DNA from: Candidatus Brocadiia bacterium
GTDB taxonomy: Bacteria; Planctomycetota; Brocadiia; CAIUPP01
Assembly (NCBI GenBank): GCA_050015075.1
Contig: JBEKCB010000018.1
Location: 20,461-84,460, forward strand
Direction of reading: 5' to 3'
Length of the DNA: 64,000 nucleotides
In this document: positions 4,186 to 58,092 of the stretch, piece by piece
How positions within the stretch are numbered: the first letter of the stretch is position 1
How the letters are laid out: each line of letters begins with the position of its first letter
The notes under the pieces: generated by a model
What the model was told of the DNA's origin: nothing
Seen by the model: only the letters and a program-made list of their open reading frames with translations
The model's database searches: none
Made by a program: the position numbers and the translations under genes

Positions 4186-4258
4186 TGGCGGGGGTGGGAG
4201 TCGAACCCACACTCTTGTCCTTATGAAGAACCTGCTTTATCCCTTAAGCTACCCCGCC
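4186..4258 (-). tRNA. tRNA-Met(CAT): tRNA-Met, anticodon CAT (elongator-type or tRNA-Ile2 precursor; CCA not encoded)
   Basis: 73 nt: GGCGGGG-TA-GCTT..AAGC-A-GGTTC-TTCATAA-GGACA-AGAGT-GTGGG-TTCGACT-CCCAC-CCCCGCC-A. It has a 7-bp acceptor stem, a GTTCGA T-loop and a CAT anticodon, and lacks the initiator-type 3xG:C anticodon stem. Confidence 0.8.
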
Positions 4259-4477: not shown

Positions 4478-5767
4478 ATGGAAGACTCCAGCATGAATCC
4501 CAATGTTCGCCGCGCGCAAAGCCGGACGTCCCTTGCGGCGTTCAACTGGAGCGTCGGGCTGCGGAGTTTCTACGACACCACCTGCGGCGGCGGGCTGTTC
4601 ATCTTTGTCTCGTTCGCGCTCTCGCTGGGCCTGGCCAAGGAGCGCGTCGGGTTGATCACCTCGGTCGTGAGCTTTGCCTGCCTGCTGCAGGTCGTGAGCA
4701 TTGCGGTGGTCAATTTCATTCCGGACAAGAAGCGGTTCATCCTCTCGGTCGGGCTCTGCGAGCCGCTGGCGCTGATCGTCACGGCGCTGGCGACGCCGTT
4801 TCTGCCGGCGGGCCTGCGGCTCTGGGCGCTGGGCGCGGGAATTTTTCTGGCGGGCGCCGCCTATCACCTGACGCGTCCCCTGGCGGACGATTGGCTGGTC
4901 TCGAGCATCCCGGTGGCCATCCGGCCGAGCTACCTCGGCGGGCGGTTCCGGGTGATCAGCGCATGCACGATCGTGGCGATGCTGCTGGCGGGCTGCGTGG
5001 CTGAGCGGATCGCGAAGTCCGATTCGTTCGGCCTCGGCCTGGCGCTGGCCGGCGGCGGCGTGTTCGGGGTGCTCTCCATTCTGGCGCTGCGGCGCGCGCC
5101 GATGCCGGTCCGGTCGGCGCTCGCGCGCGTCGCCTGGAAGGATGCGCGCGAGGCGCTCCGCGTCAAACCGTTCCGCAATTACCTGGCCGGGTTCTTCGTC
5201 TACAACATTCCGTTCCTGGCGGCCATCCCGTATTACCAGGTGTTCAATCTCAAAGTGCTTCAGATGAAGGAGAGCCGGATCGCGTACGTGGCCATCGGCT
5301 ATCTGGGCATGAAGCTGCTCGTGACGGGATTCTGCGCGCGGGTCATTCGCCGGTACGGGATCCGGCGGGTGCTCTGGGCGTGCGGGCCGCTGTACGCGCT
5401 GTTCTTCCTGGCGTACCTCTTCTGCACGCCGGAACGCACCTGGCCGCTCTATGCGGCGTGGGCGCTGGTCGGCATTGCGGACGCGGCCTTCTCGATCGCC
5501 GCGGCGATGGCGCTTTACGATTGCGTGCCGGAGACTCCCGGGCGGCCGGTCTATTTCGCCATCGCCAACGTGCTGTCCATCGGCATTTTCTGCATCGGCG
5601 GCGTCGTGGCGGTCCCGATCCTGGAAGCTCTCCAGGGCGCGGCCGTTCAGATCGGCCCGCTCACGCTCGGGCAGTTCCACTGCCTCTACGCGATCTGCTT
5701 CATCCTGATGATCCCCGCCACGTGCGGCGCGGCGTTTTTCCCTGCACGTGAAAGGTCCCTCGAGTAG
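4478..5767 (+). CDS. MFS transporter
   Basis: 429 aa with 12 predicted TM helices in an MFS-like arrangement. Confidence 0.7.
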   Translation: MEDSSMNPNVRRAQSRTSLAAFNWSVGLRSFYDTTCGGGLFIFVSFALSLGLAKERVGLITSVVSFACLLQVVSIAVVNFIPDKKRFILSVGLCEPLALIVTALATPFLPAGLRLWALGAGIFLAGAAYHLTRPLADDWLVSSIPVAIRPSYLGGRFRVISACTIVAMLLAGCVAERIAKSDSFGLGLALAGGGVFGVLSILALRRAPMPVRSALARVAWKDAREALRVKPFRNYLAGFFVYNIPFLAAIPYYQVFNLKVLQMKESRIAYVAIGYLGMKLLVTGFCARVIRRYGIRRVLWACGPLYALFFLAYLFCTPERTWPLYAAWALVGIADAAFSIAAAMALYDCVPETPGRPVYFAIANVLSIGIFCIGGVVAVPILEALQGAAVQIGPLTLGQFHCLYAICFILMIPATCGAAFFPARERSLE

Positions 5768-5783
5768 CCGGACACGTGTACGA

Positions 5784-5936
5784 ACCACCGAGACACCAAA
5801 GCACCAAGAACGCCAAATGATAATGCAACCACGGAACACACGGAAGACACTGAAACTGTTTAGCAAAGCCTTTCGGTGTGCTCCGTGTATTCCGTGGTGG
5901 AAGCCGTTGTCTCTTTGTGCCTTGGTGTCTTGGCGG
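5784..5936. repeat. nested palindromic repeat element (outer CACCAAG-unit arms, inner CCACGGAA/ACACGGA-unit arms) between convergent genes
   Basis: gagacaccaaagcaccaag...ccacggaacacacggaagacac || gtgtgctccgtgtattccgtgg...cttggtgtcttggcgg. The same inner module occurs at 29462-29612 and the same outer module at 40874-41047. Confidence 0.8.
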
Positions 5937-6692: not shown

Positions 6693-8387
6693 TTATCCGC
6701 GCTGACGTTCGCGGATGCGGATGAGGTCCTTCATCACGTGGTCGAGCTTGCCCGACCACTCGCGCGTGCCGAAGGCGTCGTGCAGCGTGCGGTAGAGCGG
6801 GTAGAGTTCGGCGTAGACCGCCTGCGCCTTCGGGTTCGGGCGGTAGAACTTGTCCTTCACGCCGCAGACGGCGCGCTGCGCCTCGGCCGCGTCCGCGAAC
6901 CCGCCGGCCTCTTTGCCGGCGGCGACCGCGCCGAAGATCGCCGCGCCGAGCGCGCAGGTCTGGTCGCTGCGCGAGACCTTCATCGGGCGGCCGGTGACGT
7001 CGGCGTAGATCTGCATCAGCAGCGGGTTCTTCGCCGCCAGGCCGCCGCAGTTGACGAACTCCTTCACCGGCACGCCGTACTCCTCGATGCGCTTGGCGAT
7101 CGTCAGCGCGCCGAACGCGGTCGCCTCGATCAGCGCGCGGTAAATCTCGTGCGCCTCGGTGTGCAGCGTCTGCCCGAGCAGCAGTCCGCTCAGGCGCACG
7201 TCCACCAGGATCGTGCGGTTGCCGTTGTTCCAGTCGAGCGCCAGCAGGCCGTGCTCGCCGGGCTTCTGCTTCGCGGCGAGCGCGCCAAGCGTCTTGAATT
7301 TCTCGTCCGTCGTCCGGCCGAAGCGCTCCGGCACGAGATGGGCGATGAACCAGAGGAAAATGTCGCCGACGGCGGACTGCCCGGCCTCGATGCCGTAGAA
7401 CCCGGGCAGGATCGAGCCGTCCACGATCCCGCAGACGCCGGGGATGTCGGCGAGCTTCTTCGCGTTGGGCATGACCATCATGTCGCAGGTGCTCGTGCCG
7501 AGGATTTTCACGAGCGTCCCTTCGCGGACGCCGGCGCCTACCGCGCCCATGTGCGCGTCGAACGCGCCGGCGGCGATCGCGATGCCCGGCTTCAGCCCGA
7601 GCTTCTTCGCCCATTCCGCCGAGAGTCGCCCCGCCGCGTGGTCAGCCGGCACCGCCTTCTCGTAGAGCCGCCGGCGCAGCGCGGCCAGAGCCGGGTCGAG
7701 CCCGCGCAGGAACTCCTCGTCCGGCAGGCCGCCCCATTCCGGGCAGTACATCGCCTTGTGGCCGGCGGCGCAGACGCCGCGGACGATTTGCTCCGGCCGC
7801 GTGTCGCCGGCGAGCAGCGCGGGCATCCAGTCGCAGTGCTCGACGAAGCTGTGCGCGGCGGCGAAGACCTTCGGCGCGGCGCGCTTGCAGCGCAGGGCCT
7901 TGCTCCAGAACCACTCCGAGGAATAAGTCCCGCCGCATTTGGCCAGGTACTGCGGCCGGATTTTCCGCGCGCGCGCGGTGATCTCCGCCGCCTCGGCGTG
8001 GCCGGTGTGGTCCTTCCAGAGCCAGGCCATCGCATCGAGGTTCCCCTTGAACTGCGGCAGCATGGCCAGCGGCGTGCCGTCGCGGTCCACCGGCATCGGC
8101 GTGCTGCCGGTGGTGTCAATGCCGATGCCGACGATCTGCGCCGGGTCGAACCGGCGGTCCGCCTTCTTCGCGCGGCGGATCGTCCGCGGCACAACGCCCA
8201 GCGCGGCGACGTAGTCCTGCGGATTCTGCCGCGCCAGGTTCGGCTCGCGCGGATCGAGCAGAATCCCCGCCGCGCCGGACGGAAAATCGAAGACGCAGCT
8301 TTCCACCTCGCGCCCGTCGGCCAGGTCCACGATCAGGCAGCGGCAGGAGTTCGTCCCGTAGTCGAGTCCCAACGCATATCTCTTCAT
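6693..8387 (-). CDS. araB: ribulokinase (FGGY carbohydrate kinase)
   Basis: Start at MKRYALGLDYGTNSCRC with a GGAGAG RBS. FGGY/AraB motifs run throughout. It lies upstream of araD on the same strand. Confidence 0.8.
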   Translation of the reverse strand: MKRYALGLDYGTNSCRCLIVDLADGREVESCVFDFPSGAAGILLDPREPNLARQNPQDYVAALGVVPRTIRRAKKADRRFDPAQIVGIGIDTTGSTPMPVDRDGTPLAMLPQFKGNLDAMAWLWKDHTGHAEAAEITARARKIRPQYLAKCGGTYSSEWFWSKALRCKRAAPKVFAAAHSFVEHCDWMPALLAGDTRPEQIVRGVCAAGHKAMYCPEWGGLPDEEFLRGLDPALAALRRRLYEKAVPADHAAGRLSAEWAKKLGLKPGIAIAAGAFDAHMGAVGAGVREGTLVKILGTSTCDMMVMPNAKKLADIPGVCGIVDGSILPGFYGIEAGQSAVGDIFLWFIAHLVPERFGRTTDEKFKTLGALAAKQKPGEHGLLALDWNNGNRTILVDVRLSGLLLGQTLHTEAHEIYRALIEATAFGALTIAKRIEEYGVPVKEFVNCGGLAAKNPLLMQIYADVTGRPMKVSRSDQTCALGAAIFGAVAAGKEAGGFADAAEAQRAVCGVKDKFYRPNPKAQAVYAELYPLYRTLHDAFGTREWSGKLDHVMKDLIRIRERQRG

Positions 8388-8491
8388 CGCCGGCTCTCCC
8401 GGAACATTCTGACATCCAGCAGGCGTCCACCGTTGCACTATTATCTCCGAGGCGGCGGTTTTTGCAAGAGCTTTGTGCAAACTGACAGAGG

Positions 8492-8640
8492 CTCGCCCGT
8501 TTGACGTCGCGACCCTGCTCGCGATATGCTGCGCGAGCCGTCGGAACGGATCGTCCTCGTCTTCGAACTCGTCCTCGTCCTCGGCTGTTCGTAACGGCCG
8601 TTCGAGGACGGGGACGAGGACGACGACGAGGACGCTTGGC
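8492..8640 (+). repeat. promoter-hairpin repeat cassette, copy 1 (sigma70-like TTGACG-N17-ATATGC followed by a long GTC/GAC-rich imperfect hairpin)
   Basis: cccgtttgacgtcgcgaccctgctcgcgatatgctgcgc, then an imperfect palindrome of about 85 bp built from CGTCCT/AGGACG units. It is nearly identical to 9266-9412. Confidence 0.75.
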
Positions 8641-8733
8641 TAATGGGCGACTCGCCACGAAGAGGCAAGTCGCACGCAACGGGTGCGATACAGTCCGCGC
8701 GCAAGGACGGCGGCTCCCGGTGGAGGAAAATCC

Positions 8734-9135
8734 ATGGCTGATGCGCTTCCGAAAGAGGAAAGTCCCGGAATCTCTGAGGAGGTTAAGCGTGTTGCAGGCG
8801 GTCTCGCACTCTGGATGCGGGTAGTGGCCATCATGGGCTTTCTCGGCGTACTCTACCAGTGGGGTAGGATGTTGCCGCAAGCAAAATTCGCCTCGGCATC
8901 CGAATTCGTTTTCGCCGTCATCAGCGGACTAATAGAATGCTTCGCGCTATTCTATTTATGGCAAAGCGCCGGCTCCTTTCGCCGGCTAGCAAGAGTTGAG
9001 CAGAGCGACGGCCGGCCACTGGAGCATGCGCTCCGGCAACTGAAGACGTACTTCTGCTTCGCGACGATTCTGACCGTGATCGAATTTGCGGCATTCTTTT
9101 GGCTTACCCGCTGGGTCGGCGCGGGAACGCGTTGA
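8734..9135 (+). CDS. small membrane protein (2-3 TM helices), hypothetical; markedly lower GC than its surroundings
   Basis: Start MADALPKEE with a GGAGGA RBS. TM segments VAGGLALWMRVVAIMGFLGVLY and FVFAVISGLIECFALFYLW. Flanked by two copies of the promoter-hairpin repeat. Confidence 0.5.
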   Translation: MADALPKEESPGISEEVKRVAGGLALWMRVVAIMGFLGVLYQWGRMLPQAKFASASEFVFAVISGLIECFALFYLWQSAGSFRRLARVEQSDGRPLEHALRQLKTYFCFATILTVIEFAAFFWLTRWVGAGTR

Positions 9136-9265
9136 GTGACGCCGCAATGCAACAGATACTTGATGCAGTCAAGAAAGCCAACACGGAAAGCCTTCACCAA
9201 TGAGTTTCGCGGCCCGAGCAGGTGGGGCCTGGCCGCTCTAACACCTGACTCCAAACCGATATAGG

Positions 9266-9412
9266 TCCGCCCGTTTGACGTCGCGACCCTGCGCGCGATA
9301 TGCTGCGCCATTTGTTGGAATGGATCGTCCTCGTCCTCGAACTCGTCCTCGGCCGTTTTCTAACGGCCGTTCGAGGACGAGGACGAGGACGGGGACGAGG
9401 ACGATTGGCTTA
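9266..9412 (+). repeat. promoter-hairpin repeat cassette, copy 2
   Basis: cccgtttgacgtcgcgaccctgcgcgcgatatgctgcgc plus a GTC-rich hairpin, immediately upstream of the aldolase gene. Confidence 0.75.
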
Positions 9413-9451
9413 TGGGGAGACTCACGAGTGAAGAGACCCTCTGTCGCCACA

Positions 9452-10336
9452 ATGATGCAGGCGGCGTGCGAGAAGCAGATCCTGATCCCGGCGTTCAACA
9501 TCGCCTACCTGCCGATGACGCGGCCGGTGGCGCGGACGCTCGAACGGCTCGGGACGTTCGGGCTGGCCGAGGTGGCGATGCCGGACGTGACGCGCTTCGG
9601 CGCGAAGAGTTTCGACGCGGTCGCCGCCGAGTACCGCAAGGAGGCGAACCCGGAGTTCGTGGCGCTCCACCTCGACCACGTGCCGGTGATTGACGAGGAA
9701 CACAAGCGCCTGGATTGGGAAGCGCTGATCCGCAAGGGACTGGATCTCCGGTTCGAGTCGGTGATGCTCGACGGCTCGCGCCTGCCGCTGGAGGAGAACA
9801 TCGCGGCGGTGCGTCAGGTCGTAGAGATGTGCCACCCCAGGGTCGCCGTCGAGGCGGAGCTCGGCGCGGTGCTCGGACACGAGGCCGGGCCGATCCCGCC
9901 GTACGAGGAACTCTTCCGGACGAAGAGAGGATTCACCGACCCGGACGAGGCGCGGCGGTTCGTGAAGGAGACCGGCGTGGACTGGCTCAGCGTGGCCGTC
10001 GGCAGCATCCACGGCGCGATCACCGGCGCGGGCAAGGACCAGGCGAAAGTCGCCGCACGGCTGCACAGCGAGCATCTGCGCACGCTCCGCAAGGCCACCG
10101 GCGTGCCGCTGGTGCTCCACGGCGGATCGGGCGTGCAGAAGGAATCCGTCCTTGAGGGCATCCGCAACGGCATCGCTAAGATCAATATCGGAACCGAGAT
10201 ACGACAGGCTTACGAGAAGCCGCTGGCCGCCGGCAAGGGCGAGAAGGCCGCGCAGGAGGCGGTCGCCGCGAAGGTCGAGGAACTCATCGTCGAGGTTTAC
10301 GGCATCGCCGGCTCGCGGGCGAAGCTGTGCGGATGA
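9452..10336 (+). CDS. class II fructose/tagatose-bisphosphate aldolase family protein
   Basis: Start MMQAACEKQILIPAFNIAY, with LHLDH and LHGGSG zinc-aldolase motifs. The upstream part of the ORF (from 9275) lies inside the repeat hairpin and is not coding. Confidence 0.75.
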   Translation: MMQAACEKQILIPAFNIAYLPMTRPVARTLERLGTFGLAEVAMPDVTRFGAKSFDAVAAEYRKEANPEFVALHLDHVPVIDEEHKRLDWEALIRKGLDLRFESVMLDGSRLPLEENIAAVRQVVEMCHPRVAVEAELGAVLGHEAGPIPPYEELFRTKRGFTDPDEARRFVKETGVDWLSVAVGSIHGAITGAGKDQAKVAARLHSEHLRTLRKATGVPLVLHGGSGVQKESVLEGIRNGIAKINIGTEIRQAYEKPLAAGKGEKAAQEAVAAKVEELIVEVYGIAGSRAKLCG

Positions 10337-10342
10337 ACTCCC

Positions 10343-10425
10343 AATCGTCCTCGTCCTCGCTCTCGTCCTCGTCCTCGAACGGTAGGTCATAACGGCCGAG
10401 GCGGAGGACGACGACGAGGACGATC
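10343..10425. repeat. GTC/GAC-rich hairpin (hairpin-only copy of the cassette; probable terminator between the aldolase gene and murJ)
   Basis: cgtcctcgtcctcgctctcgtcctcgtcctcgaacgg...ccgaggcggaggacgacgacgaggacg. Confidence 0.7.
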
Positions 10426-10446
10426 GAGGCGCAATCGGCGTTATAG

Positions 10447-12045
10447 ATGCCTGAAAAACACGACATTCTTCCCGGCATGCTCAAGACCGGCGCGGGGACA
10501 TTGGCCAGCCGGATTCTGGGGCTTCTGCGCGAGGTGTTCACCACGCGCTTTTTCGGCGCCGGCCCCGCGTTCGATATGTTCGTCATCGCCTTCCGCGTGC
10601 CGAACCTCTTTCGTGCGCTCTTCGGCGAGGGCGCGTTGAACGCGTCGTTCATCCCGGTCTTCACGCGCGAGGGGCTCGATCCGGCGGGCGATGCGCGGCG
10701 GCTGCTCAACGCCGTCATGACGGCGCTCGCCGCGCTGCTGATGGGCATCACCTGCCTGGGCTGGCTGATCTGCGGCATCGCCCTGCTCTCCGGCCGCCTG
10801 CCGCCCAACGGCAAGCTGTTCTGCCTGCTGCTGATGATCCTGCTGCCGTACCTTCCGCTCATCTGCCTCACCGCGCTGCAGGGCGCCGCGCTGAACGTGA
10901 AAGGGCATTTCCTCCGGCCCGCGTTCGCGCCGACGATCATGAACATCTGCTGGATCGGCGCGATTGTCCTGCTGCGGTTTTGGCACGTCAAGGACTTGAG
11001 CCTGGGCGCCACCGCGCTCGCGGTCGGAGTGCTGATTTCGGGCGGGCTCCAGTTCGCCTATCAGGCGATGATGCTGCGCCGCTGCAAGCTCCATTTTCGG
11101 CTGGTCTGGGACCTGGCGCATCCGGGCCTGCGGCAGATCGTTCACCTGACGCTCCCGGTGGCGCTGGGAGTGGGCGTCATCCAGGTCAACACGTTCGTGG
11201 ATTCGCTCTTTGCGCAGTTCTGCGTGCGGGATGCGGGCGCCAACAGCGCGCTGTGGTATGGCAACAACCTGATGCAATTTCCGCTGGGCGTGCTGGGTAC
11301 CGCGCTGGCGACGGCGGTGCTTCCGGCGCTGGCGCACCACGAGGCCGTGGGCGACCGCAAGTCGTTCGTGGACGCCATCGGCCTGTCGCTCCGGACGGCG
11401 TTCTTCGTCTCGCTTCCCTGCGTCGCCGCCACGGTCGCGCTCAGCGCGCCGATCGTGCGGGTGCTCTATGAGGGCGGGCGGTTTACGCCTGAATCCACGG
11501 CGCGGACGGCGGCGGTCTTCCTCTGTTTCACCGCGGGCCTGTGGGCGTTCTGCGCCATCCAGGTGCTGGCGCGCGCGTTCTACGCTCAGCAGGACGTGCG
11601 CGCGCCCAGGCGGATTGCGGTCATGATGGTCGGCGCAAACTTCGTCCTGAACGCGATTTTGGTCTGGCCGATGCGCGAGGCGGGACTGGCGCTGTCGAGC
11701 AGCATCTGCGGGGTCGGGAACATGGTGCTGCTGTGGATACACCTGAGAAAGAAGATCGGTCCGATCGGCGGGCGCGCTGTGGCGGCCAGCGCGGTGAAGT
11801 CCGCCGTCGCCGCCGCGATCGCAGGGCTCGCCGGGTACGGCGCATTTTACGGAACTCTGCGAGCGGCCGGCGGGCCGGCGATGACCTCGCCGCGGGCCTG
11901 GCCTCAACTCCTGGCGCTCTCGTGCGGCCTGGCCGCCGTGTGCGCGGTCTTCCTGCTGGCGGCGTGGGCGCTGCGCGCGACGGAACTGAGCGAGTTCCTC
12001 CAGTCCCTCCGCCGGAAGAAAGACCGGGCGCCTTCGGACGGCTGA
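10447..12045 (+). CDS. murJ: lipid II flippase MurJ/MviN
   Basis: 532 aa with 14 TM helices and a MurJ N-terminal signature (LASRILGLLREV...FGAGPAFDMFVIAFRVPNLFRALFGEGALNASFIPVF). Confidence 0.85.
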   Translation: MPEKHDILPGMLKTGAGTLASRILGLLREVFTTRFFGAGPAFDMFVIAFRVPNLFRALFGEGALNASFIPVFTREGLDPAGDARRLLNAVMTALAALLMGITCLGWLICGIALLSGRLPPNGKLFCLLLMILLPYLPLICLTALQGAALNVKGHFLRPAFAPTIMNICWIGAIVLLRFWHVKDLSLGATALAVGVLISGGLQFAYQAMMLRRCKLHFRLVWDLAHPGLRQIVHLTLPVALGVGVIQVNTFVDSLFAQFCVRDAGANSALWYGNNLMQFPLGVLGTALATAVLPALAHHEAVGDRKSFVDAIGLSLRTAFFVSLPCVAATVALSAPIVRVLYEGGRFTPESTARTAAVFLCFTAGLWAFCAIQVLARAFYAQQDVRAPRRIAVMMVGANFVLNAILVWPMREAGLALSSSICGVGNMVLLWIHLRKKIGPIGGRAVAASAVKSAVAAAIAGLAGYGAFYGTLRAAGGPAMTSPRAWPQLLALSCGLAAVCAVFLLAAWALRATELSEFLQSLRRKKDRAPSDG

Positions 12046-19594: not shown

Positions 19595-20170
19595 ATGAAA
19601 AACCGATGCGAATGGGGCGTCAGCGATCCGCTGTATGTGAAGTACCACGACCGCGAATGGGGAACGCCTCTGCATGACGATCACGGGCTTTTCGAGTTCC
19701 TGGTTCTGGAGGGCGCGCAAGCGGGGCTGAGCTGGCTGACCATCCTCCGGAAACGCGACAACTATCGCAAGGCGTTCGACCGGTTCGATCCGCAGAAGGT
19801 CGCGCGCTATTCGGCGGCGGATGTCCGGCGCCTTCGTGCCGACCCCGGCATTGTGCGCAATCGCCTGAAGATCGAATCGGCCATTCGAAACGCGCGGTGC
19901 GCGCTCGCCGCCGCTGACGAGTTCGGCTCCTTCGACTCCTTCATCTGGCGCTACGTGGACCACCAGCCTCGGCAGAATGCCTGGCGCACGCTGGCCGAAC
20001 TGCCGGCCAGAACCGCGCTCTCCGACAGGATGAGTAAAGAGTTGAAGAAGCGGGGATTCAGCTTCGCGGGCTCGACGATCTGCTACGCCTTCATGCAGGC
20101 GGTCGGGATGGTGAACGACCACGTCGTGGGCTGCTTCCGGCATGAGGAACTGAAGAAGATGGCCCGATAA
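19595..20170 (+). CDS. tag: DNA-3-methyladenine glycosylase I
   Basis: MKNRCEWGVSDPLYVKYHDREWGTPLHDD...GSTICYAFMQAVGMVNDH, a Tag signature. Confidence 0.85.
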   Translation: MKNRCEWGVSDPLYVKYHDREWGTPLHDDHGLFEFLVLEGAQAGLSWLTILRKRDNYRKAFDRFDPQKVARYSAADVRRLRADPGIVRNRLKIESAIRNARCALAAADEFGSFDSFIWRYVDHQPRQNAWRTLAELPARTALSDRMSKELKKRGFSFAGSTICYAFMQAVGMVNDHVVGCFRHEELKKMAR

Positions 20171-20248
20171 GGCAAAACGAGCATTTCCCTTTCGTACAAT
20201 TCCTGGCACAGCAACGATTAATGATTCGCCCGCACAGCTAGCGGATTA

Positions 20249-21061
20249 TTACGTCGAAGAAGGGTTAGTTTCGATTTCCGTCTCTACTATCGCATCGGGT
20301 ATTCCAACCTTATCAATCCAATCACGAAGACGTGCGGCGTTCTCAGGCGTTAGCTCATTCCAGTCCTTGAGATGAACATGTAGGACGACAGACATAGCTA
20401 CCGCGTGTTTCTGCTGAACGCACACATCACCTTTCACTTGTGTTGCGACTGCCGCCATCTGTTCAATGTTTGGAGTGGGAGTTTGCGCCGGTACTTCAAC
20501 TTCATCGAGGTTCCCCTTTGTGAGCGTACCGGCGTCATCTGCCAACACTAGCCCGGTGTACAGGATGAAATCGATGAGTCGGTCCAAAGCGGATGAATCG
20601 CCCTCGGTCGCCCCCGCCTTGATTGCTAGTGATTTCTTCATCTCGGACCTGGACAACGAAGGACGCAAAGCAAAGTTCTGAACTACGACCTGTCCATACC
20701 AGCACCGAGCTACGAGCCTACGAAGATAAGATTTCGCCTTCTCCTCATCCCACGCCGCTTCGCGAGCAAACCGAACAGCCTCTTGGCTGGGAACATAATA
20801 CCCGTACTTGGGCGATACCAGAATCTGGGACTCCGACAAGAAATTGTTGTTGGCACTAACCGTAGACTGCCCCAAACCAGTAGCGCTTGCCACATCGCTG
20901 TACTTGACCGGAGACTCTCCGCCATTCGAGGCAACGACATAACCCTTTATTACTCTGACAAGTACGTCCGCTCCAGAAAGGGGAAGCGCTTTCTCTGCTG
21001 TAAGCTTCGGCAGTTTTGTCTTTATTTGTTGCTCGACTTTTTGTTCCTCATCTTTACTCAT
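20249..21061 (-). CDS. hypothetical protein with a predicted N-terminal (winged) HTH; last gene of the low-GC island operon
   Basis: 270 aa with an HTH-like YSDVASATGLGQSTVSANNNFL. The GC is much lower than the host genome. It overlaps the upstream NTPase gene by ATGA. Confidence 0.5.
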   Translation of the reverse strand: MSKDEEQKVEQQIKTKLPKLTAEKALPLSGADVLVRVIKGYVVASNGGESPVKYSDVASATGLGQSTVSANNNFLSESQILVSPKYGYYVPSQEAVRFAREAAWDEEKAKSYLRRLVARCWYGQVVVQNFALRPSLSRSEMKKSLAIKAGATEGDSSALDRLIDFILYTGLVLADDAGTLTKGNLDEVEVPAQTPTPNIEQMAAVATQVKGDVCVQQKHAVAMSVVLHVHLKDWNELTPENAARLRDWIDKVGIPDAIVETEIETNPSST

Positions 21062-22422
21062 GACGCGCCTCCAATCTTTAGGGCCAAGGCATAAAGGTAA
21101 GGAATCTCAAACGAATCAGATTGATTGACCGCCTTCCTGTCTTTTACGGCCACAGCACCAATCCTGACAAGATCGGATATGACCAACTTGGCGTCTAGAT
21201 CAGCCTTACCAAGAGCAGCAGATAGTTGCTTCCGGTTGAAAGTCCGCGAGTTGTGCCCGCTCAACTGTTTATATGTTTGGCTGTAGTTTGGAAAAACCTG
21301 AAGGAAATCGTTCAGCTTATCCGCAGCGGTAAGATCTATTGCCTGTCGAATTGCCTCAGCGGAAATCAAACACGTCGGCTTGTTTACACCCTGGCGGTTG
21401 AAAGTTAACTGCGATTTCTGAGCCTCGATGCAGAAATTTACAAAATCGCGCGGAAGTGCATCGCCATTTCCGTCCTTGAAGCGTTCATACAGCACTTCAA
21501 ACCCGCCCGCGTAAGGCTCTTCCCAATCGAAAACTTCATCGAGCCACTTTTGGGCAACGGGATAGATGATGTCGTCATTATGCTCTGGATGTAAGACAGC
21601 GAGACGGTGGGCGAGAAGAATCCCTATGTCCTCCTTAGTCCACTTCAAAGTCAATTTCAACGCGCTGAAATGGTCTTTGTTGACATAGCCGAGTTCGTCA
21701 TAAATGTCAGACCGGAAAAACAGCTTAAACTTCAATCTCCTGAGTCGTATCAAGTCGCTGACAGCCGTCATTAGGCTGCTGAGGAGCTCGGCGATTTCAT
21801 CTTCCTTACTGCCGTTCAGCCGGACCTCGTCCAGACTGTCGAGGCAAATCCACAAGTCTGCTCCTTGCTCATCCAACCATGAACTTGCCAGATGGATAAC
21901 CTGATCGCATTCCGTCATCGCAAGGGGTATCTTCGGCGGTATCTCTGTAGTCACATACTCACCGATCCCGACCTTGAACTTCAAAGTCCTCAACGACTGC
22001 CACGGCGTAGGAACTATCCCGACCAGTCCCCAACGCACTAAGAATCGCTCGAACGTCTTTCTTGTCGTCTCGGCCAGACGGTCTTCATTGATGAGAAGCC
22101 CCGCGATGAGTGACGCGATATGAAAACGCCATAACCCAACCTTCGATGATGAAACAGCCGGATGCAAAGTGGCCCAGTGTTGTTGAAGTTGCGGCTCTTC
22201 ACCGAGCCAAAGGTTCGGTTTCTTGAAAATCGGGATCTTGTCTTCCCACTCGCGCAACATTTGGTAAATGGCGCTTTTACCGGCGCCCTTTGCTCCGAGA
22301 ACGAGGTAAATCCTATCGGAGCATGTCAAATCAAAAGCAACCGACTTATAGAAATAGTGCTTCAGATTGGTATCATGCTGCGCAGCACCGAAGCCAAAAT
22401 CAATCTTTTCGAGTGCGTTCAT
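21058..22422 (-). CDS. P-loop NTPase with a NACHT-like Walker B motif (STAND-like ATPase), hypothetical
   Basis: 454 aa. Walker A LVLGAKGAGKSAIYQ at about residue 45; Walker B LWICLDSLDEV (hhhhD[GAS]hDE) at about residue 195. Low GC. ATGA overlaps with both neighbouring genes. Confidence 0.6.
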   Translation of the reverse strand: MNALEKIDFGFGAAQHDTNLKHYFYKSVAFDLTCSDRIYLVLGAKGAGKSAIYQMLREWEDKIPIFKKPNLWLGEEPQLQQHWATLHPAVSSSKVGLWRFHIASLIAGLLINEDRLAETTRKTFERFLVRWGLVGIVPTPWQSLRTLKFKVGIGEYVTTEIPPKIPLAMTECDQVIHLASSWLDEQGADLWICLDSLDEVRLNGSKEDEIAELLSSLMTAVSDLIRLRRLKFKLFFRSDIYDELGYVNKDHFSALKLTLKWTKEDIGILLAHRLAVLHPEHNDDIIYPVAQKWLDEVFDWEEPYAGGFEVLYERFKDGNGDALPRDFVNFCIEAQKSQLTFNRQGVNKPTCLISAEAIRQAIDLTAADKLNDFLQVFPNYSQTYKQLSGHNSRTFNRKQLSAALGKADLDAKLVISDLVRIGAVAVKDRKAVNQSDSFEIPYLYALALKIGGAS

Positions 22423-22890: not shown

Positions 22891-25227
22891 TCACTCTTGC
22901 GTGTAAATCACAATCCGGTCATGGATGAGCAGCACGATGTCGGGCTTGCCGCCGGTGACGGCGCCGATGGCGAACTCGCGCGGTTCCGACGAGGCCGCCG
23001 GCGCCGGACCCATGCGGCCGCCGACGAACGCCTTGGCTTCGAAGACCGGCCAGGCGAGCACGCGCTCGATGCGCGGCTCTTCTTTCCGCCACGTCAGCAG
23101 TTCCATCAACTGCTTCGTCCCCTCGGTGACGATGATCTGCGGCCGGCCGTCGCCGCGGAGGTCGCCGACCTCGACGTTCTCCAGCCGCCCGTTGCGCACC
23201 GGCGATTCGTACGAGGCGATCGAGCGCAGCGCCACGCGCGGCAGGCCCGGGCGCAGGATGTGGAAATCGTCCTGCCCGGCCAGGATGACGGCCGGCTTGC
23301 CGCTTCCATCCAGGTCCGCGACGTGCAGCCGCTCGAGGTTGACCGCGCCGGTCTGGAGTTTGTCCGCGACTTCGTACACGCCGGTCTTGTTCGCCCGGAG
23401 CACGGTCAGGCAATGGTTCGCCGCGTCCGCGAGGAGGATGTCCGTGGTCGAACTTCCGTTGAGCCGGACAGCGGAGGCCGCGACGATCTGGCTGGTCGGC
23501 GCCACGCCGTTGAACTGCTCGACGATCTCGATCCGGTCCTTGTCGTCGAGCCGCAGCGCGCGCGCGAAGCTCTTCGCGGCGACGAGGATCGTCGGCTTGC
23601 CGTCACCCTTGAGGTCGGCGATCGAGACGGCCCGCCGCGTGACGCCCTGCACGAGCCCCTTGCCGTAATCCGGCCCGCGCGAGACGTCAACGAATTGCGC
23701 GTCGGCCGTCTGCTTGAAGATGCGCATCTCCTGGTACGGCGTGAAGAGCAGGATGTCCGGCCGGCCGTCCTGGTTCGCGTCGGCCACGAGCAGGCCGTCG
23801 GGATCGGTGCGCGCGTCCTCGATCGGGATGCGCAGGGACTCGACGAAGGTCGCGCCCGGCCCGATGGTCAGCACGCGAATGGACTTGTCGCGTGCCTGGG
23901 AGGAGACGTAGAGGATCTCGCGTTTGCCGTCGGCGAAGAGGTCGGCGACGCACATGCAGGTCGGCTTGCCGACGATCGGCAGCGACCGCGGGAAGGTCAG
24001 GCGGCCCTGCGCGTCGAGGCGCATCAGGCCCAGCATCGGTTCATCGGGGCTGAGGACGAGCACCGCCGGGGCGCCGTCCACTTCGAGCACGGCGACGTCC
24101 GTCACTCCCTGCAGGCACGGGAAGGCCGCCTGCCGGTCCCACTGGCCGGACTGGTTCTGGCGGAAGAGTTCGATCTCGGCCGCGTCGGGGTCAGCGACGA
24201 CGATGTCCATCCGTCTCGGATCGGTCAACGGGCCGAAAGCGAGCGGGTGCGCGCGCCGCGAGCCGGTCCCGCGCAGCGCGTAACGCTCGAACGGCCCGTC
24301 GAGGAGCACGCCCGGATCCGCCGGCTCCGTGCCGACCTTGTAAACCACCAGCCGGCCCTGTGACCGCTCAATCGCGACCAGTTCGGTGCAGCCGTCCTTG
24401 TCGAGGTCGCCGAGGGCTACGCTGCTCATCGGCGGCGCCTTGCAGCGCACTTCGGGGCCGAGCCGCCCTTCGGCGTTCTGGAACCGGAAGCAGAACGGCG
24501 CGGCCTCGTCGCTGCAGAAGTAGAGCAGGTCCTTCCGGCCGTTGCCGTCGAAATCGGCGATGGCGATGCCGACGGCGCCCTCGGGCAGGCCCGATTCCTT
24601 GATCGGCGCTTCGAGCTGGCCGGCGGCGTTCTGGTGGAAGAAGTAGGTGCCGTCCGTGCCGAGGAGGACCAGGTCGTTCCGGCCGCTCTTGCGCAGGTCG
24701 CCGATCGCCAGGGCGTTCATCTGCGTGGAGCCGTCGGCGATGTCAAACGTCCGGCGCGGTCCCCATTGCCCGTTCTTGTCCTGGTAGACCACGACGAGTT
24801 CGCGCGGATCGCCGTAGTACGCCATGTCCGTCCGGCCGTCGCCGTTGAGGTCGCCAAGCTCCAGGCTGTAGACGTGCTTCTCGGTCAGATAGGGCCGGCT
24901 GTCGAACTGCGCGTCGTTGGGAACCTCGTTCGGCTCCGCGTCCGCCGGCTTCGCCGCCGGGGCCTTCGCAGCGCCGGCCGTTTTCGGGCGCTGCAGCAGG
25001 CACTCGATCCGCGCGCGCGCGTTGTTCACCACGACGATGTCGGTCAGCCCGTCGCCGTTGACGTCGGCGAGGCGCAGGTTGCTCGTGTCCCAGTCGAGCT
25101 TGTACATCTCCATACCGGAGAAGCCGAAAGATTCCGTCGCCGGCTTCGTTTCGCCGGACGCCGGCAATGAGAGCACGCCCAGGCATAACGCGGCGAAGAC
25201 CAGACGAATCACCGGTGGATTTCGCAT
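22891..25227 (-). CDS. secreted FG-GAP / VCBS repeat protein (integrin-alpha-like beta-propeller repeats)
   Basis: Signal peptide MRNPPVIRLVFAALCLGVLSLPASG, followed by many (N/D)xDGxxD(I/L)(V/L) FG-GAP repeats. Confidence 0.75.
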   Translation of the reverse strand: MRNPPVIRLVFAALCLGVLSLPASGETKPATESFGFSGMEMYKLDWDTSNLRLADVNGDGLTDIVVVNNARARIECLLQRPKTAGAAKAPAAKPADAEPNEVPNDAQFDSRPYLTEKHVYSLELGDLNGDGRTDMAYYGDPRELVVVYQDKNGQWGPRRTFDIADGSTQMNALAIGDLRKSGRNDLVLLGTDGTYFFHQNAAGQLEAPIKESGLPEGAVGIAIADFDGNGRKDLLYFCSDEAAPFCFRFQNAEGRLGPEVRCKAPPMSSVALGDLDKDGCTELVAIERSQGRLVVYKVGTEPADPGVLLDGPFERYALRGTGSRRAHPLAFGPLTDPRRMDIVVADPDAAEIELFRQNQSGQWDRQAAFPCLQGVTDVAVLEVDGAPAVLVLSPDEPMLGLMRLDAQGRLTFPRSLPIVGKPTCMCVADLFADGKREILYVSSQARDKSIRVLTIGPGATFVESLRIPIEDARTDPDGLLVADANQDGRPDILLFTPYQEMRIFKQTADAQFVDVSRGPDYGKGLVQGVTRRAVSIADLKGDGKPTILVAAKSFARALRLDDKDRIEIVEQFNGVAPTSQIVAASAVRLNGSSTTDILLADAANHCLTVLRANKTGVYEVADKLQTGAVNLERLHVADLDGSGKPAVILAGQDDFHILRPGLPRVALRSIASYESPVRNGRLENVEVGDLRGDGRPQIIVTEGTKQLMELLTWRKEEPRIERVLAWPVFEAKAFVGGRMGPAPAASSEPREFAIGAVTGGKPDIVLLIHDRIVIYTQE

Positions 25228-25667
25228 CGTTCCGCGCGCCTCCTCTATCACGAACTCAGGACGCCTGGATTCCCGCTTTCGCGGCAATGACGTAAGGTGT
25301 TTTCAGCACAGTGTTTGCTGCAAATTGGATTCGTTTTTTCAAATCGCATTTTCAGCTTCATATCCTTGCCTGCCAATAACTTACGGCATCTCGAGGCTTG
25401 GATTATACAATAAGTTTTCTGATATGTCAAGGGCCGCGCTGCTGTTTTAATGGTGCCATGCATACAGATTATAATCATAACAGATTATAGCTACGGTGCT
25501 TACGGCTTATCTCTCCGATAACAACGTTTCCGTTTTTCCGGTTTTCAGCCCTTCGGCCGTGAGAGGAGCCGAACGGGTCAGCGCCGAACGGCTGAAAACA
25601 ACCGACCAAGCATATTGCAGTCTAGCGGTTTTGCAAGAGGCGTTCAATGGGTGGCGGCCATCAATCC

Positions 25668-37826: not shown

Positions 37827-38903
37827 ATGAGTTACTTCCGCCGCAACATCCAGCGCATGACCGGCTACGTGCCGGGCGAGCAACCGCAGGAGAAAGGGTT
37901 TATCAAGCTCAACACGAACGAGTCGCCGTATCCGCCATCGCGGAAGGTGCTCCGCGCGGTCCGGGCGGCGGTGAACGCGGACGTGCGGCTCTACCCCGAC
38001 CCGATGGCCAACGCGCTCCGGCGCAGGGCGGCGGAACTCTTCGGGACTCGGCCGGAATGCGTGCTGGCGGGGAACGGGTCGGATGAGCTGCTCACGATCG
38101 TTGTGCGCGCGTTCGCCGGGCCGAAGCGCGTCGTGGCGTATCCGACGCCGACCTATTCGCTCTATCCGACGCTCGCCGCCATCGAGGACGCGCGCACGCG
38201 CCCGGTCCCGTACCCGCGCGATTTCTCGCTGCCCGCCGGGCTTTTCCGCAAGGGCGCGGCGGTGACGATCGTGGCGAACCCGAACAGCCCGACCGGCACC
38301 GCGGCGTTGCCGAAAGAACTCGCGCGGCTGGCGCGCGCGGTCAGCGGCGTGCTGGTGATTGACGAGGCGTACGTGGATTTCGCGGACCTCGACTGCATGG
38401 AACTCGCGAGACGCCACAGCAACGTGATCGTGCTGCGGACGTTCTCGAAGTCGTTTTCGCTCTGCGGCCTCCGGCTCGGCCTGGCCGTCGCCGACGAGAA
38501 GCTCATCGAGGGCATGGCCAAGGTCAAGGACAGCTACAACGTCAACCGGCTGGCGATCGTGGCGGGCGCGGCGGCGCTCGACGACATCGGCTCGATGCGG
38601 GCGAACGCGGAGAAAATCCGCCGGACGCGCGCGCGGCTGACGGCGGCGCTGGAATCGCGCGGCTGGTTCGTTTATCCTTCGCAGAGCAACTTCATCTTCG
38701 CGCGTGTGCCGCCGCCGCTCTCGGCGCGCCGGATTTACCAGGAGCTGAAGCGCCGGAAAATCCTCGTCCGCTATTTCGACGCGCCCGGTCTCGACGACGG
38801 GCTGCGCATCACCATCGGCAGCGACCGCGAGATCAGCGCATTGATCCGCGGCCTGCGAAGCATCGAGGAACAAAGAATTTTAACCACAGATGGACACAGA
38901 TGA
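37827..38903 (+). CDS. hisC: histidinol-phosphate aminotransferase
   Basis: MSYFRRNIQRMTGYVPGEQ...KLNTNESPY, and TFSKSFSLCGLRLG containing the PLP-binding lysine. Confidence 0.85.
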   Translation: MSYFRRNIQRMTGYVPGEQPQEKGFIKLNTNESPYPPSRKVLRAVRAAVNADVRLYPDPMANALRRRAAELFGTRPECVLAGNGSDELLTIVVRAFAGPKRVVAYPTPTYSLYPTLAAIEDARTRPVPYPRDFSLPAGLFRKGAAVTIVANPNSPTGTAALPKELARLARAVSGVLVIDEAYVDFADLDCMELARRHSNVIVLRTFSKSFSLCGLRLGLAVADEKLIEGMAKVKDSYNVNRLAIVAGAAALDDIGSMRANAEKIRRTRARLTAALESRGWFVYPSQSNFIFARVPPPLSARRIYQELKRRKILVRYFDAPGLDDGLRITIGSDREISALIRGLRSIEEQRILTTDGHR

Positions 38904-38962
38904 ACACAGATACGCAATAACTTTCTTGTCCACATCTGTGCTCATCTGTGTCCATCTGTGGT
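38884..38962. repeat. palindrome with CACAGATG(A/G)A tandem-unit arms (28-bp arms, 1 mismatch) overlapping the hisC stop codon
   Basis: ccacagatggacacagatgaacacagat-[loop]-atctgtgctcatctgtgtccatctgtgg. The same module occurs at 40921-41000. Confidence 0.8.
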
Positions 38963-38992
38963 TTCAAAATGAATTAAACTGAGGAGATGAAC

Positions 38993-40873: not shown

Positions 40874-41047
40874 TTAACCACCAAGACACCAAGGCACCAA
40901 GGACGACGGCAGTTTTCGGAACCACAGATGAACACAGATGAGCACAGATACGAATTTCGTTTTGGCCCCATCTGTGTTTATCTGTGTTCATCTGTGGTTC
41001 CTAAATCCGTCATCGTCCTTGGTGCCTTGGCGTCTTGGTGGTTAAGT
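40874..41047. repeat. roughly 175-bp near-perfect nested palindrome (outer CACCAAGG-unit arms, inner CACAGATGA-unit arms) between the convergent alr and ugd genes
   Basis: ttaaccaccaagacaccaaggcaccaaggacgacgg..ggaaccacagatgaacacagatgagcacagat | atctgtgtttatctgtgttcatctgtggttcc..ccgtcatcgtccttggtgccttggcgtcttggtggttaa. Confidence 0.85.
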
Positions 41048-57539: not shown

Positions 57540-57995
57540 ATGAGCAAGAACGGCGAGGCCGCCGTGGCGATGTTCCTGCAGGGGTACAACTGCGCGCAAT
57601 CCGTGCTGGTGAGCTGCGGGCAAGAGTACGGCCTGCCGCGCGAGACGGCGGTGCGGGTGGCGCAGGCGTTCGGCGGCGGCATCGGCCGCAGCGGCAACGT
57701 CTGCGGCGCGGCGACCGGCGCGCTGATGACCGTCGGGCTGAAATGCTCCGTGAAGGACGCGACGGACCTCGCGGCGAAAGCGGAGGCCGGCCGCATCGCG
57801 CAGGAATTCCTCGCGCGCTTCAAGGCGCGCAGCGGATCGCTCCTGTGCCGCGACATCATCGGCTGCGACCTGTCCACGGCGGAAGGCTACAAGTACGCCG
57901 TCGAGAGCGGCCGCCACCAGACCATCTGCCCCAAGGCCATCCGCGACGCGATCGAGATTATCGAAGATCTCTTGAACCCTGTGGAGAAACGTTAG
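57540..57995 (+). CDS. C_GCAxxG_C_C family redox-active protein
   Basis: GYNCAQSVL and VCGAATGA motifs. Confidence 0.7.
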   Translation: MSKNGEAAVAMFLQGYNCAQSVLVSCGQEYGLPRETAVRVAQAFGGGIGRSGNVCGAATGALMTVGLKCSVKDATDLAAKAEAGRIAQEFLARFKARSGSLLCRDIIGCDLSTAEGYKYAVESGRHQTICPKAIRDAIEIIEDLLNPVEKR

Positions 57996-58092
57996 GACAT
58001 TGGGAAATTGGGAGATTAGGAGATTGGGACATCTGAAGAGCGCTGCGACAGCCTCCTAATCTCCCAATCTCCTAATCACCCAATCTCCTAAC
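57996..58092. repeat. palindrome with TTGGGAGA/TTAGGAGA tandem-unit arms between the C_GCAxxG gene and arsM; a half-copy also at 58897-58935
   Basis: ggacattgggaaattgggagattaggagattgggac ... cctcctaatctcccaatctcctaatcacccaatctcc. Confidence 0.7.

Follow-up and report, generated by a model that had tools for sequence, protein, structure and literature searches.

The stretch examined here (the window) comprises 64,000 nucleotides from a Candidatus Brocadiia bacterium and carries two copies of a promoter-hairpin cassette, with a small gene between them, in the spacer between araB (FGGY-family kinase) and a class II aldolase-family gene. The neighboring genes run in the order araD, araB, aldolase, murJ. 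The contigs and loci compared with the window are labeled L001-L155. Features of the locus are as follows.

8440..8467, (-), araB promoter-like site TTGCAA-N16-GATAAT, from the promoter scan
8472..8667, (+), cassette copy 1 (resident), orthologous to the single cassette of relatives without the small gene
8501..8530, (+), copy 1 promoter-like site TTGACG-N18-TATGCT, from the promoter scan, now upstream of the small gene
8547..8640, (+), hairpin 1, arms 8551-8636, a (TCGTCC)n / (GGACGA)n palindrome
8641..8667, (+), decayed aldolase ribosome-binding site and codons 2-3 (GGGCGACTCGCCACGAAGAG), from alignment to copy 2 and L137
8668..8733, (+), leader of the small gene, colinear with L012, L013 and L014 from GCAAGT on
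8734..9135, (+), small open reading frame (ORF), 133 aa, three hydrophobic segments, weakly DUF5362-like
9126..9203, (+), frameshifted former C-terminus of the small gene; the +1 frame reads NALSDAAMQQILDAVKKANTESLHQ and then a stop, matching the C-termini in L013 and L014
9252..9427, (+), cassette copy 2 (aldolase-proximal, the putative working promoter region)
9275..9304, (+), copy 2 promoter-like site TTGACG-N18-TATGCT, from the promoter scan
9321..9410, (+), hairpin 2, arms 9322-9406
9428..10336, (+), class II fructose/ketose-bisphosphate aldolase family gene, start GTG 9428
10341..10425, (+), hairpin 3, arms 10342-10425, between the aldolase gene and murJ

We confirmed that the duplicated promoter-hairpin arrangement is real. 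The window is identical across both cassettes to nine independent contigs from JGI/ENA, and the duplication is therefore not an assembly artefact; a tenth contig (L005) ends inside copy 2, because the repeat breaks the assembly, as expected. NCBI records the 133-aa protein for a Candidatus Brocadiia (Planctomycetota) metagenome-assembled genome. The contigs that encode the 133-aa protein come from JGI/ENA environmental metagenomes, which we take to be peatland. L001-L010 match the window exactly in the cassettes and so carry no comparative power there. A repeat search returned direct repeats at 8478-8580 / 9252-9354 (86%, spacing 774) and at 8592-8647 / 9361-9416 (91%, spacing 769). The first-pass annotation, made from the letters of the window alone, had recognized both copies; its boundaries were too short, as homology covers about 8478-8667 and 9252-9435, and this longer homology takes in the aldolase ribosome-binding site and first codons.

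The cassette represents the native control region of the aldolase, made up of a sigma70-type promoter and a palindromic repeat of ~85 nt, and its promoter points away from the araB promoter. The promoter scan returned three promoter-like sites in the region against 0.5 expected. The site TTGACG-N18-TATGCT scores 9/12, retains A2 and T6 of the -10 element, and agrees with sigma70 hexamers and spacing. Across the 64 kb, its 39-nt string is present exactly two times where 0 are expected, which bears out the earlier reading that the two copies carry an identical sigma70-like promoter. That reading had given the site as TTGACG-N17-ATATGC; the -35 hexamer stands, but TATGCT with an 18-nt spacer makes the better -10.

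Conservation among relatives points in the same direction. All eight cassettes immediately upstream of the aldolase agree in GTTTGAC, in GATATGCTGCG and in the distance separating the two, but differ in spacer sequence; hexamers and spacing are kept in the window (both copies), L012, L013, L014, L137, L139, L141 and L154. This pattern is as expected of a working promoter; activity itself is a prediction from sequence conservation. A metagenome scan for the promoter box returned orthologous loci only, plus 13 unrelated chance matches; the box is confined to this locus, and the cassette is therefore not a portable element or a dispersed promoter. We also considered a leader peptide, MLRHPLE, starting from the ATG in GATATGCTGCGCCATCCG, and rejected it: it has no ribosome-binding site, its ATG lies inside the -10 element, and neither its frame nor its stop is conserved among relatives. 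The aldolase itself starts with GTG in the window and with ATG at the same position in L012, L014, L141 and L152.

All structural variation among relatives starts just upstream of the araB -35, past ...TTTTTGCAAG at 8471. The araB promoter block hardly varies between the window, L012, L013 and L014, and is present also in L137, L139, L141 and L154. Comparison of the araB/aldolase spacer turned up relatives with a single cassette and no small gene: these empty alleles are L137, L138, L139, L140 (via aldolase protein), L141, L154 (via box scan). In L137/L138 (an NCBI Brocadiia metagenome-assembled genome, MAG) and in L139/L140 the order is araB, single cassette, aldolase, hairpin, murJ. The L137 and L139 aldolases share ~94% DNA identity and 95% protein identity with that of the window. 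The outgroups L133 and L135 (74-76% protein identity) have no small gene, no promoter box and no hexamer hairpins. In three further relatives, L012, L013 and L014, the small gene follows a promoter-like site of its own, TTGAAT-N17-TATAAT, with no cassette upstream, and the promoter box, with or without hairpin, lies between the small gene and the aldolase. The aldolase-murJ order is the same in all relatives. Filled, empty and intermediate alleles thus all persist in related populations.

The anatomy of copy 1 identifies it with the cassette of the empty alleles. Its araB-side flank is common to them and reads (A/G)GCTTTGT(G/C)CAAACTGACA(G/T)AGG after TTTTTGCAAG, with GCAAG as the last letters before the (A/G); it shares with L137 the variant GCGCGAGCCGT.GGAACGG and the order of right-arm units. 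Past its hairpin, copy 1 reads ATGGGCGACTCGCCACGAAGAG, which corresponds to a decayed aldolase ribosome-binding site and codons 2-3, the GTG start being absent from this remnant. The remnant indicates that copy 1 once directly adjoined the aldolase gene. On the strength of these alignments we take copy 1 to be the resident cassette and count its orthology as established. At 8667/8668 there is a novel joint, where the copy 1 remnant passes into the GCAAGT... leader seen upstream of the small gene in L012-L014.

The extra DNA accordingly runs from 8668 to about 9441 and consists of the leader, the small gene and its frameshifted old C-terminal end, then a spacer, and finally the second cassette, whose aldolase start is intact. 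The left flank of copy 2, CTCTAACACCTGACTCCAAACCGATATAGG (CTCTAAC.CCTGACTCCAA.CCGATATAGG), also follows the small gene in L013; its counterparts in L014 and L012 have diverged further. Copies 1 and 2 are 84.6% identical to each other; copy 1 reaches 89.2% with the single cassette of L137, and copy 2 reaches 88.0% with that of L154. Because each copy is closer to a cassette of another strain than to its partner, two diverged alleles appear to have been joined. Both window copies nevertheless carry the patch GACGTCGCGACCCTGC, where every other cassette has GACGCCGCG....

These identities bear directly on how the duplication arose. The first-pass annotation had proposed that an insertion duplicated the cassette; in this model, a foreign small-gene segment entered past the cassette and by its insertion duplicated a target of ~190 bp. 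The gene is indeed extra and several close relatives are empty, the insert does lie between direct repeats, and the window differs from the empty alleles by exactly one unit of 769-774 bp; the shared window-specific patch GACGTCGCGACCCTGC and the atypical GC of the small gene would also fit. The duplication was probably not a fresh one made in place, judging from the copies, which have diverged (84.6% vs 88-89% elsewhere), each lying nearer to single cassettes of other strains. These identities already suggest that the copies, the shared patch set aside, are not sister sequences. Moreover, the leader and the left flank of copy 2 are common to L012-L014, in which the gene is preceded by a promoter of its own instead of a cassette, and we know of no insertion mechanism that yields a 190-bp target duplication, which we count against this model. 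In-place duplication is, in our estimate, very unlikely.

A second alternative reverses the polarity: the window-type arrangement would be old, and the empty alleles would derive from it by recombination between the copies, deleting the small gene. Repeats of 165-190 bp in direct orientation lend themselves well to deletion, L139 joins a copy-1-like araB-side flank with a copy-2-like GCGCCATCCGTTGGAATGG, and the small gene is present in L012, which branches deepest within the in-group. Against this, the outgroups L133 and L135 lack the gene, and the GCGCCAT variant occurs also in L012, L013 and L014 and is therefore probably the common state, not a recombination scar. The aldolase-start remnant shows that copy 1 once directly adjoined the aldolase, and the scenario accounts for the empty alleles but not for the origin of the duplication. 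We consider it quite unlikely as the explanation of the locus, although repeat-mediated loss may contribute to the empty alleles.

We instead hold, with moderate confidence, that recombination between two diverged strain alleles created the arrangement and that the hairpins are members of a dispersed family. The ancestral order in the clade would have been araB, single cassette, aldolase, hairpin, murJ. The window's population would then have gained, between resident copy 1 and the aldolase, a 774-bp unit comprising the leader, the small low-GC membrane-protein gene and the unit's own diverged cassette with intact aldolase start. The most economical route appears to be recombination of an empty, L137-like allele with an L013-like allele in which the small gene already stood directly upstream of a cassette. 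Homology within the aldolase or past it would have joined one end of the crossover, and an illegitimate joint at 8667/8668 the other; the event would resemble homology-facilitated illegitimate recombination. Later gene conversion would explain the patch GACGTCGCGACCCTGC common to both copies. The small gene would have lost its own promoter and come to lie behind an aldolase-type promoter and hairpin, and the 165-190-bp direct repeats would leave the 774-bp unit prone to recombinational loss. Such a history would constitute a natural promoter swap in an uncultured planctomycete, placing a small gene behind a copy of its neighbor's promoter.

Homology-facilitated illegitimate recombination offers a close parallel. 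Here, too, one junction is homologous and the other, at 8667/8668, is a novel joint with minimal microhomology, and the duplicated segment flanks newly acquired DNA. The difference is that the process is deduced here from sequence comparison only.

Several points weigh against the two-allele explanation. The empty alleles could, equally plausibly, have come from a window-like allele by copy-copy recombination, and the order of events proposed here is provisional. Since L012, the deepest in-group lineage by araB, has the small gene, its loss in L137 and L139 is conceivable. The model accounts neither for the L013-type allele nor for an insert of ~450 bp in L012, L014, L152 and L155, and the patch GACGTCGCGACCCTGC, found in both window copies only, demands the additional gene-conversion step. 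On the side of the hairpins, covariation and strand bias give no sign of RNA-level selection, so that a role like that of repetitive extragenic palindromic (REP) sequences is an analogy only; the hairpins may be neutral or selfish DNA, and both promoter use and any hairpin effect are predicted from the DNA itself.

The population clearly recombines. Identities of murJ are mosaic: 93% between the window and L139 and 92% between L013 and L137, against about 86-87% for other in-clade pairs (excluding L134). L005 and L010, which have the identical small gene, are L139-like in araD/araB and then match the window at 100% from about 8200 or 7400.

The araB/aldolase spacer is structurally very plastic. 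The ~450-bp insert lies just past the promoter box in L012 (6690-7135), L014 (3470-3965), L152 (665-1040) and L155 (2385-2599). It contains a strong promoter-like site, TTGAC(A/G/T)-N17-TATA(G/C/A)T, GAAAAAACGAACCCAATT repeats and two GATTTGAAAAAACGAACCCAATTT repeats, together with, in L012, L014 and L152, head-to-head CGTC-1/dRS3-type REP dimers of the form TGTC-ATTCCCGC-GAAG-GCGGGAAT-CCA. An Rfam search of the L012 insert gave only sub-threshold matches to microRNA-like hairpins, none of them credible. The insert could be a small mobile element or a small RNA gene. Reading TGTCCA beside the second box of L012 and L014 as the flank of a resident cassette is uncertain, as L152 shows that GCGCTGT ends the ~450-bp insert. 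The araD/araB spacer shows quick palindrome turnover: the arms of the hairpin there are (TGATGA)n in L137 (1453-1521), L139 (1426-1493) and L014 (668-777) but (TCGTCC)n in L012, and the window, with a spacer of 51 bp, has neither kind.

The small gene was described at first as a low-GC inserted gene for a protein with two transmembrane segments. Its composition agrees with that description: GC is 0.567 and GC at third codon positions (GC3) is 0.63, vs GC3 of 0.88-0.93 in the neighbors, and the gene falls in the lowest 5% of 400-nt windows. The topology does not, three hydrophobic segments being found instead of two. GC3 is 0.63-0.72 in all four homologues, and the low GC therefore belongs to the gene itself and does not mark this insertion event. 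The dN/dS of the gene is 0.29-0.74, and three of the four homologues match DUF5362 weakly (best E = 4.4e-5). Among 5.8 billion proteins we found only three other clusters of the small protein at 90% identity (L012, L013 and L014), all between araB and the aldolase, and a profile search of 1.84 billion representative proteins returned only 22 at E<=1e-3; the family is rare. The promoter that precedes the leader in L012, L013 and L014 is missing from the window. The 3' frameshift implies either that truncation is recent or that the gene is decaying.

The three hairpins of the window share one design. A purpose-built detector found exactly three hexamer-armed hairpins in the window, which together with folding substantiates the earlier description of an ~85-bp hairpin in each copy and a third, hairpin-only copy past the aldolase. 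The left arm consists of TCGTCC repeats and the right arm of GGACGA repeats, in an element of ~85 nt with arms of 33-40 nt. Minimum free energies of the RNAs are -67.6, -63.3 and -49.4 kcal/mol for hairpins 1, 2 and 3, with folding z-scores of -6.6, -6.8 and -4.5. The hexamer motif has 34 matches in all, vs 1.85 expected; the three hairpins account for 21 of the 34, and the remaining 13 are isolated matches with two mismatches. A hairpin at the third position, between aldolase and murJ, is found also in L012, L013, L014, L134, L137 and L139.

The position of the hairpin between a conserved promoter and a ribosome-binding site, where it is kept in most lineages of the clade, had suggested attenuation or thermosensing; on this account the hairpin would be a cis-acting RNA regulator (an attenuator, thermosensor or ligand-responsive leader) of the aldolase and now of the small gene too. 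The evidence does not support this account. The aldolase ribosome-binding site (GGGGAG, 9414-9419) and the GTG start at 9428 lie outside hairpin 2 (-63 kcal/mol), so the site is not occluded, and stems of -63 to -68 kcal/mol are far too stable for physiological melting. Hairpins 1, 2 and 3 (flanks GCTTGGCTAATGG, ATTGGCTTATGG and ATCGAGGCGCAA) all lack a U-tract and a predicted terminator, which speaks against an intrinsic terminator or attenuator. An RNA thermometer or riboswitch finds no backing either: Rfam gives no match at E<=1 in 8000-11000, and 17 homologous hairpins show no compensatory change in 12 predicted pairs, the arms being of low complexity. Folding reveals no sense-strand bias, the sense strand being better in 7 of 15 hairpins of this clade and in 8 of 24 from other contexts in the Planctomycetes-Verrucomicrobia-Chlamydiae (PVC) group. 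L013 and L152 have lost the upstream hairpin yet keep the promoter and gene, and hairpins of the same type occur 3' of the aldolase, at other loci and inside genes.

We therefore regard RNA-level control by these hairpins as extremely improbable. They are not a dedicated riboregulator but members of a dispersed palindrome family with tandem-hexamer arms, and if active at all they would most likely act as REP-like stable structures that bound or stabilize transcripts. The case carries a caution for riboswitch and leader hunting, as a leader-like combination of promoter and stable hairpin proved to include a member of a dispersed repeat. The hexamer arms also generate spurious ORFs or N-terminal extensions (SSSSSNSSSSS, RPRLRTRPRPR, RPRPRTRPRPR and IVLVLALVLVLER), which could mislead gene callers; in the window these are:

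8473-8643, spurious ORF or extension made by hairpin arms
8501-8824, the same
9275-10336, the same (5' part)
10152-10385, the same

We scanned 185,579 species-representative genomes with the pattern CGTCCTCGTC-N35-65-GACGAGGACG and obtained at least 117 loci, at least ~58 of which are true hexamer-armed hairpins. At least ~45 of these ~58 belong to Verrucomicrobiota, Planctomycetota, Kiritimatiellia or Lentisphaerae, often with several per MAG. Among the matches listed, one MAG has six strict-pattern loci (L034, L043, L062, L090, L102, L106), another five (L019, L033, L072, L079, L107) and a third three (L083, L122, L129). L022 holds a tandem triplet of hairpins, L024 is a match at an unrelated locus in the same MAG as L137, and L012 has a further copy between araD and araB. 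By position, the matches listed divide into 32 intergenic, 12 called 'inside' genes and 14 at a locus edge. Crude gene calls for the spacers among the matches listed give 19 tandem, 8 divergent and 5 convergent contexts, the hairpin often filling the whole spacer. The family is dispersed, multi-copy and mainly extragenic, as REP sequences are.

Seven of the 'inside' ORFs were checked: three are real insertions, two are over-extensions of the start codon and two are without a Pfam match. In the RlmN of L020 and L112 (Verrucomicrobiota), a hairpin encodes SSSSS...ITRTRTTTRT in frame; the insert separates the N-terminal domain from the radical-SAM core and aligns to a 21-residue gap relative to PDB 6fz6. 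The two proteins are 83% identical, and the insert measures ~21 residues. The coordinates of these hairpins in their own loci are:

L020, 806-874, in the - strand ORF 194-1333
L112, 5148-5228, in the ORF 4596-5825

The hexamer arms contain no stop codon in any of six frames. The palindrome family thus breaks assemblies, makes spurious ORFs and inserts in frame into conserved genes. Searching the literature both for the sequence and for the subject brought up no account of these hexamer palindromes, though unsearched journals could hold one. The family is apparently uncatalogued, is without an Rfam entry and is common in PVC bacteria.

This distribution raises the question of whether the hairpins are themselves active elements, of the MITE type (miniature transposable elements with inverted repeats) or the REPIN type, mobilized by a transposase from another locus, with the cassette duplication as a by-product. 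Dispersal in multiple copies with genome-specific variants, the greater likeness of the two aldolase-flanking hairpins of one genome to each other than to their orthologues, the presence of a hairpin in the araD/araB spacer of L012 and its absence from the others, and the in-frame RlmN insertions all speak for mobility. On the other hand, target-site duplications do not exceed chance: across 72 hairpins the mean best flanking direct repeat is 2.65 nt, vs 2.67 nt in controls, a result that also fails the hairpins as MITEs. No associated transposase turned up, though no systematic search was made. Variation in the number of arm repeats fits slippage equally well, and the unit duplicated in the window is promoter, flank and gene start, not the palindrome alone. 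As an account of the locus, mobile hairpins seem unlikely to us.

A broader version is a tentative possibility that we rate below even odds: the hexamer hairpins could form an undescribed class of self-propagating, tandem-repeat-armed palindromes, PVC-wide and coding-tolerant, that promotes the shuffling of promoters and small genes between strains wherever its members lie. In this reading, tolerance of coding regions would follow from arms without a stop codon in any frame. An integron gene cassette was also considered and, from the hairpin ends and the gene order, set aside: the hairpin ends are ATCGTCC...GGACGAT, there are no GTTRRRY attC cores, and gene order is stable.

Other palindromes with tandem-repeat arms occur in the same genome, with GGGAGATT, CACAGATGA or TGATGA arms. 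Three in the window are intergenic:

38882-38963, CACAGATGA arms
40874-41045, CACCAAG and CACAGATGA arms
57992-58091, GGGAGATT arms

Two of the three end 15-20 nt before a ribosome-binding site and ATG, and one lies between convergent ORFs. A palindrome of the GGGAGATT type is present also in the araB/aldolase spacer of L133 and L135.

Among known elements, the closest analogues are REP sequences and bacterial interspersed mosaic elements (BIMEs), the Rickettsia palindromic elements, and the Correia elements. REP sequences of the GTAG/CGTC-tagged kind are stem-loops of 20-40 bp with an unpaired tetranucleotide tag (Di Nocera et al. 2013, PMC3733652). Families with the CGTC tag have stems of 8-9 bp and loops of 4-5 nt, and no dedicated transposase is known for them (PMC3733652). 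By that definition (PMC3733652) the hairpins here are not CGTC REPs: size, stem, loop and tag all differ, and CGTC occurs only within paired hexamers. The CGTC-1-type REP dimers of the ~450-bp insert (L012, L014, L152) are clearly a different element. In other respects the likeness to the REP/BIME of Enterobacteria and Pseudomonas is considerable, as both are dispersed, mostly extragenic palindromes, several per genome, often between co-directional genes and sometimes inside genes, for which a role in transcript stabilization or termination has been proposed. The element here differs in its length of 75-110 nt and in its arms, which are 30-45 nt long and built of tandem hexamers in variable number.

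Like the Rickettsia palindromic elements, the hairpins can sit in frame inside conserved genes without destroying them; within the family RlmN provides the case, and none of the three window copies does. The two kinds of element have sequences that are not obviously related and come from different phyla, and the arms of the Rickettsia elements are not known to consist of tandem hexamer repeats. The Correia elements of Neisseria (CREE/NEMIS) are likewise small palindromes near gene starts, in 5' untranslated regions, promoter-associated and able to form long RNA hairpins. In Correia elements the promoter-like sequences are part of the inverted repeats themselves, and TA target duplications are present. 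In the cassette, by contrast, the promoter lies outside the palindrome and is locus-specific, and there are no target duplications.

Elsewhere in the window, GC falls to 0.47-0.53, against a mean of 0.66, at 19900-22400 and about 25000-25300, with no rRNA found there by Rfam. The CGTC-1 REP core is nearly matched at 25269-25288, and a further hairpin occupies 25541-25599. The sole match at the Rfam gathering threshold in the whole window is a tRNA gene at 4186-4258 (-).

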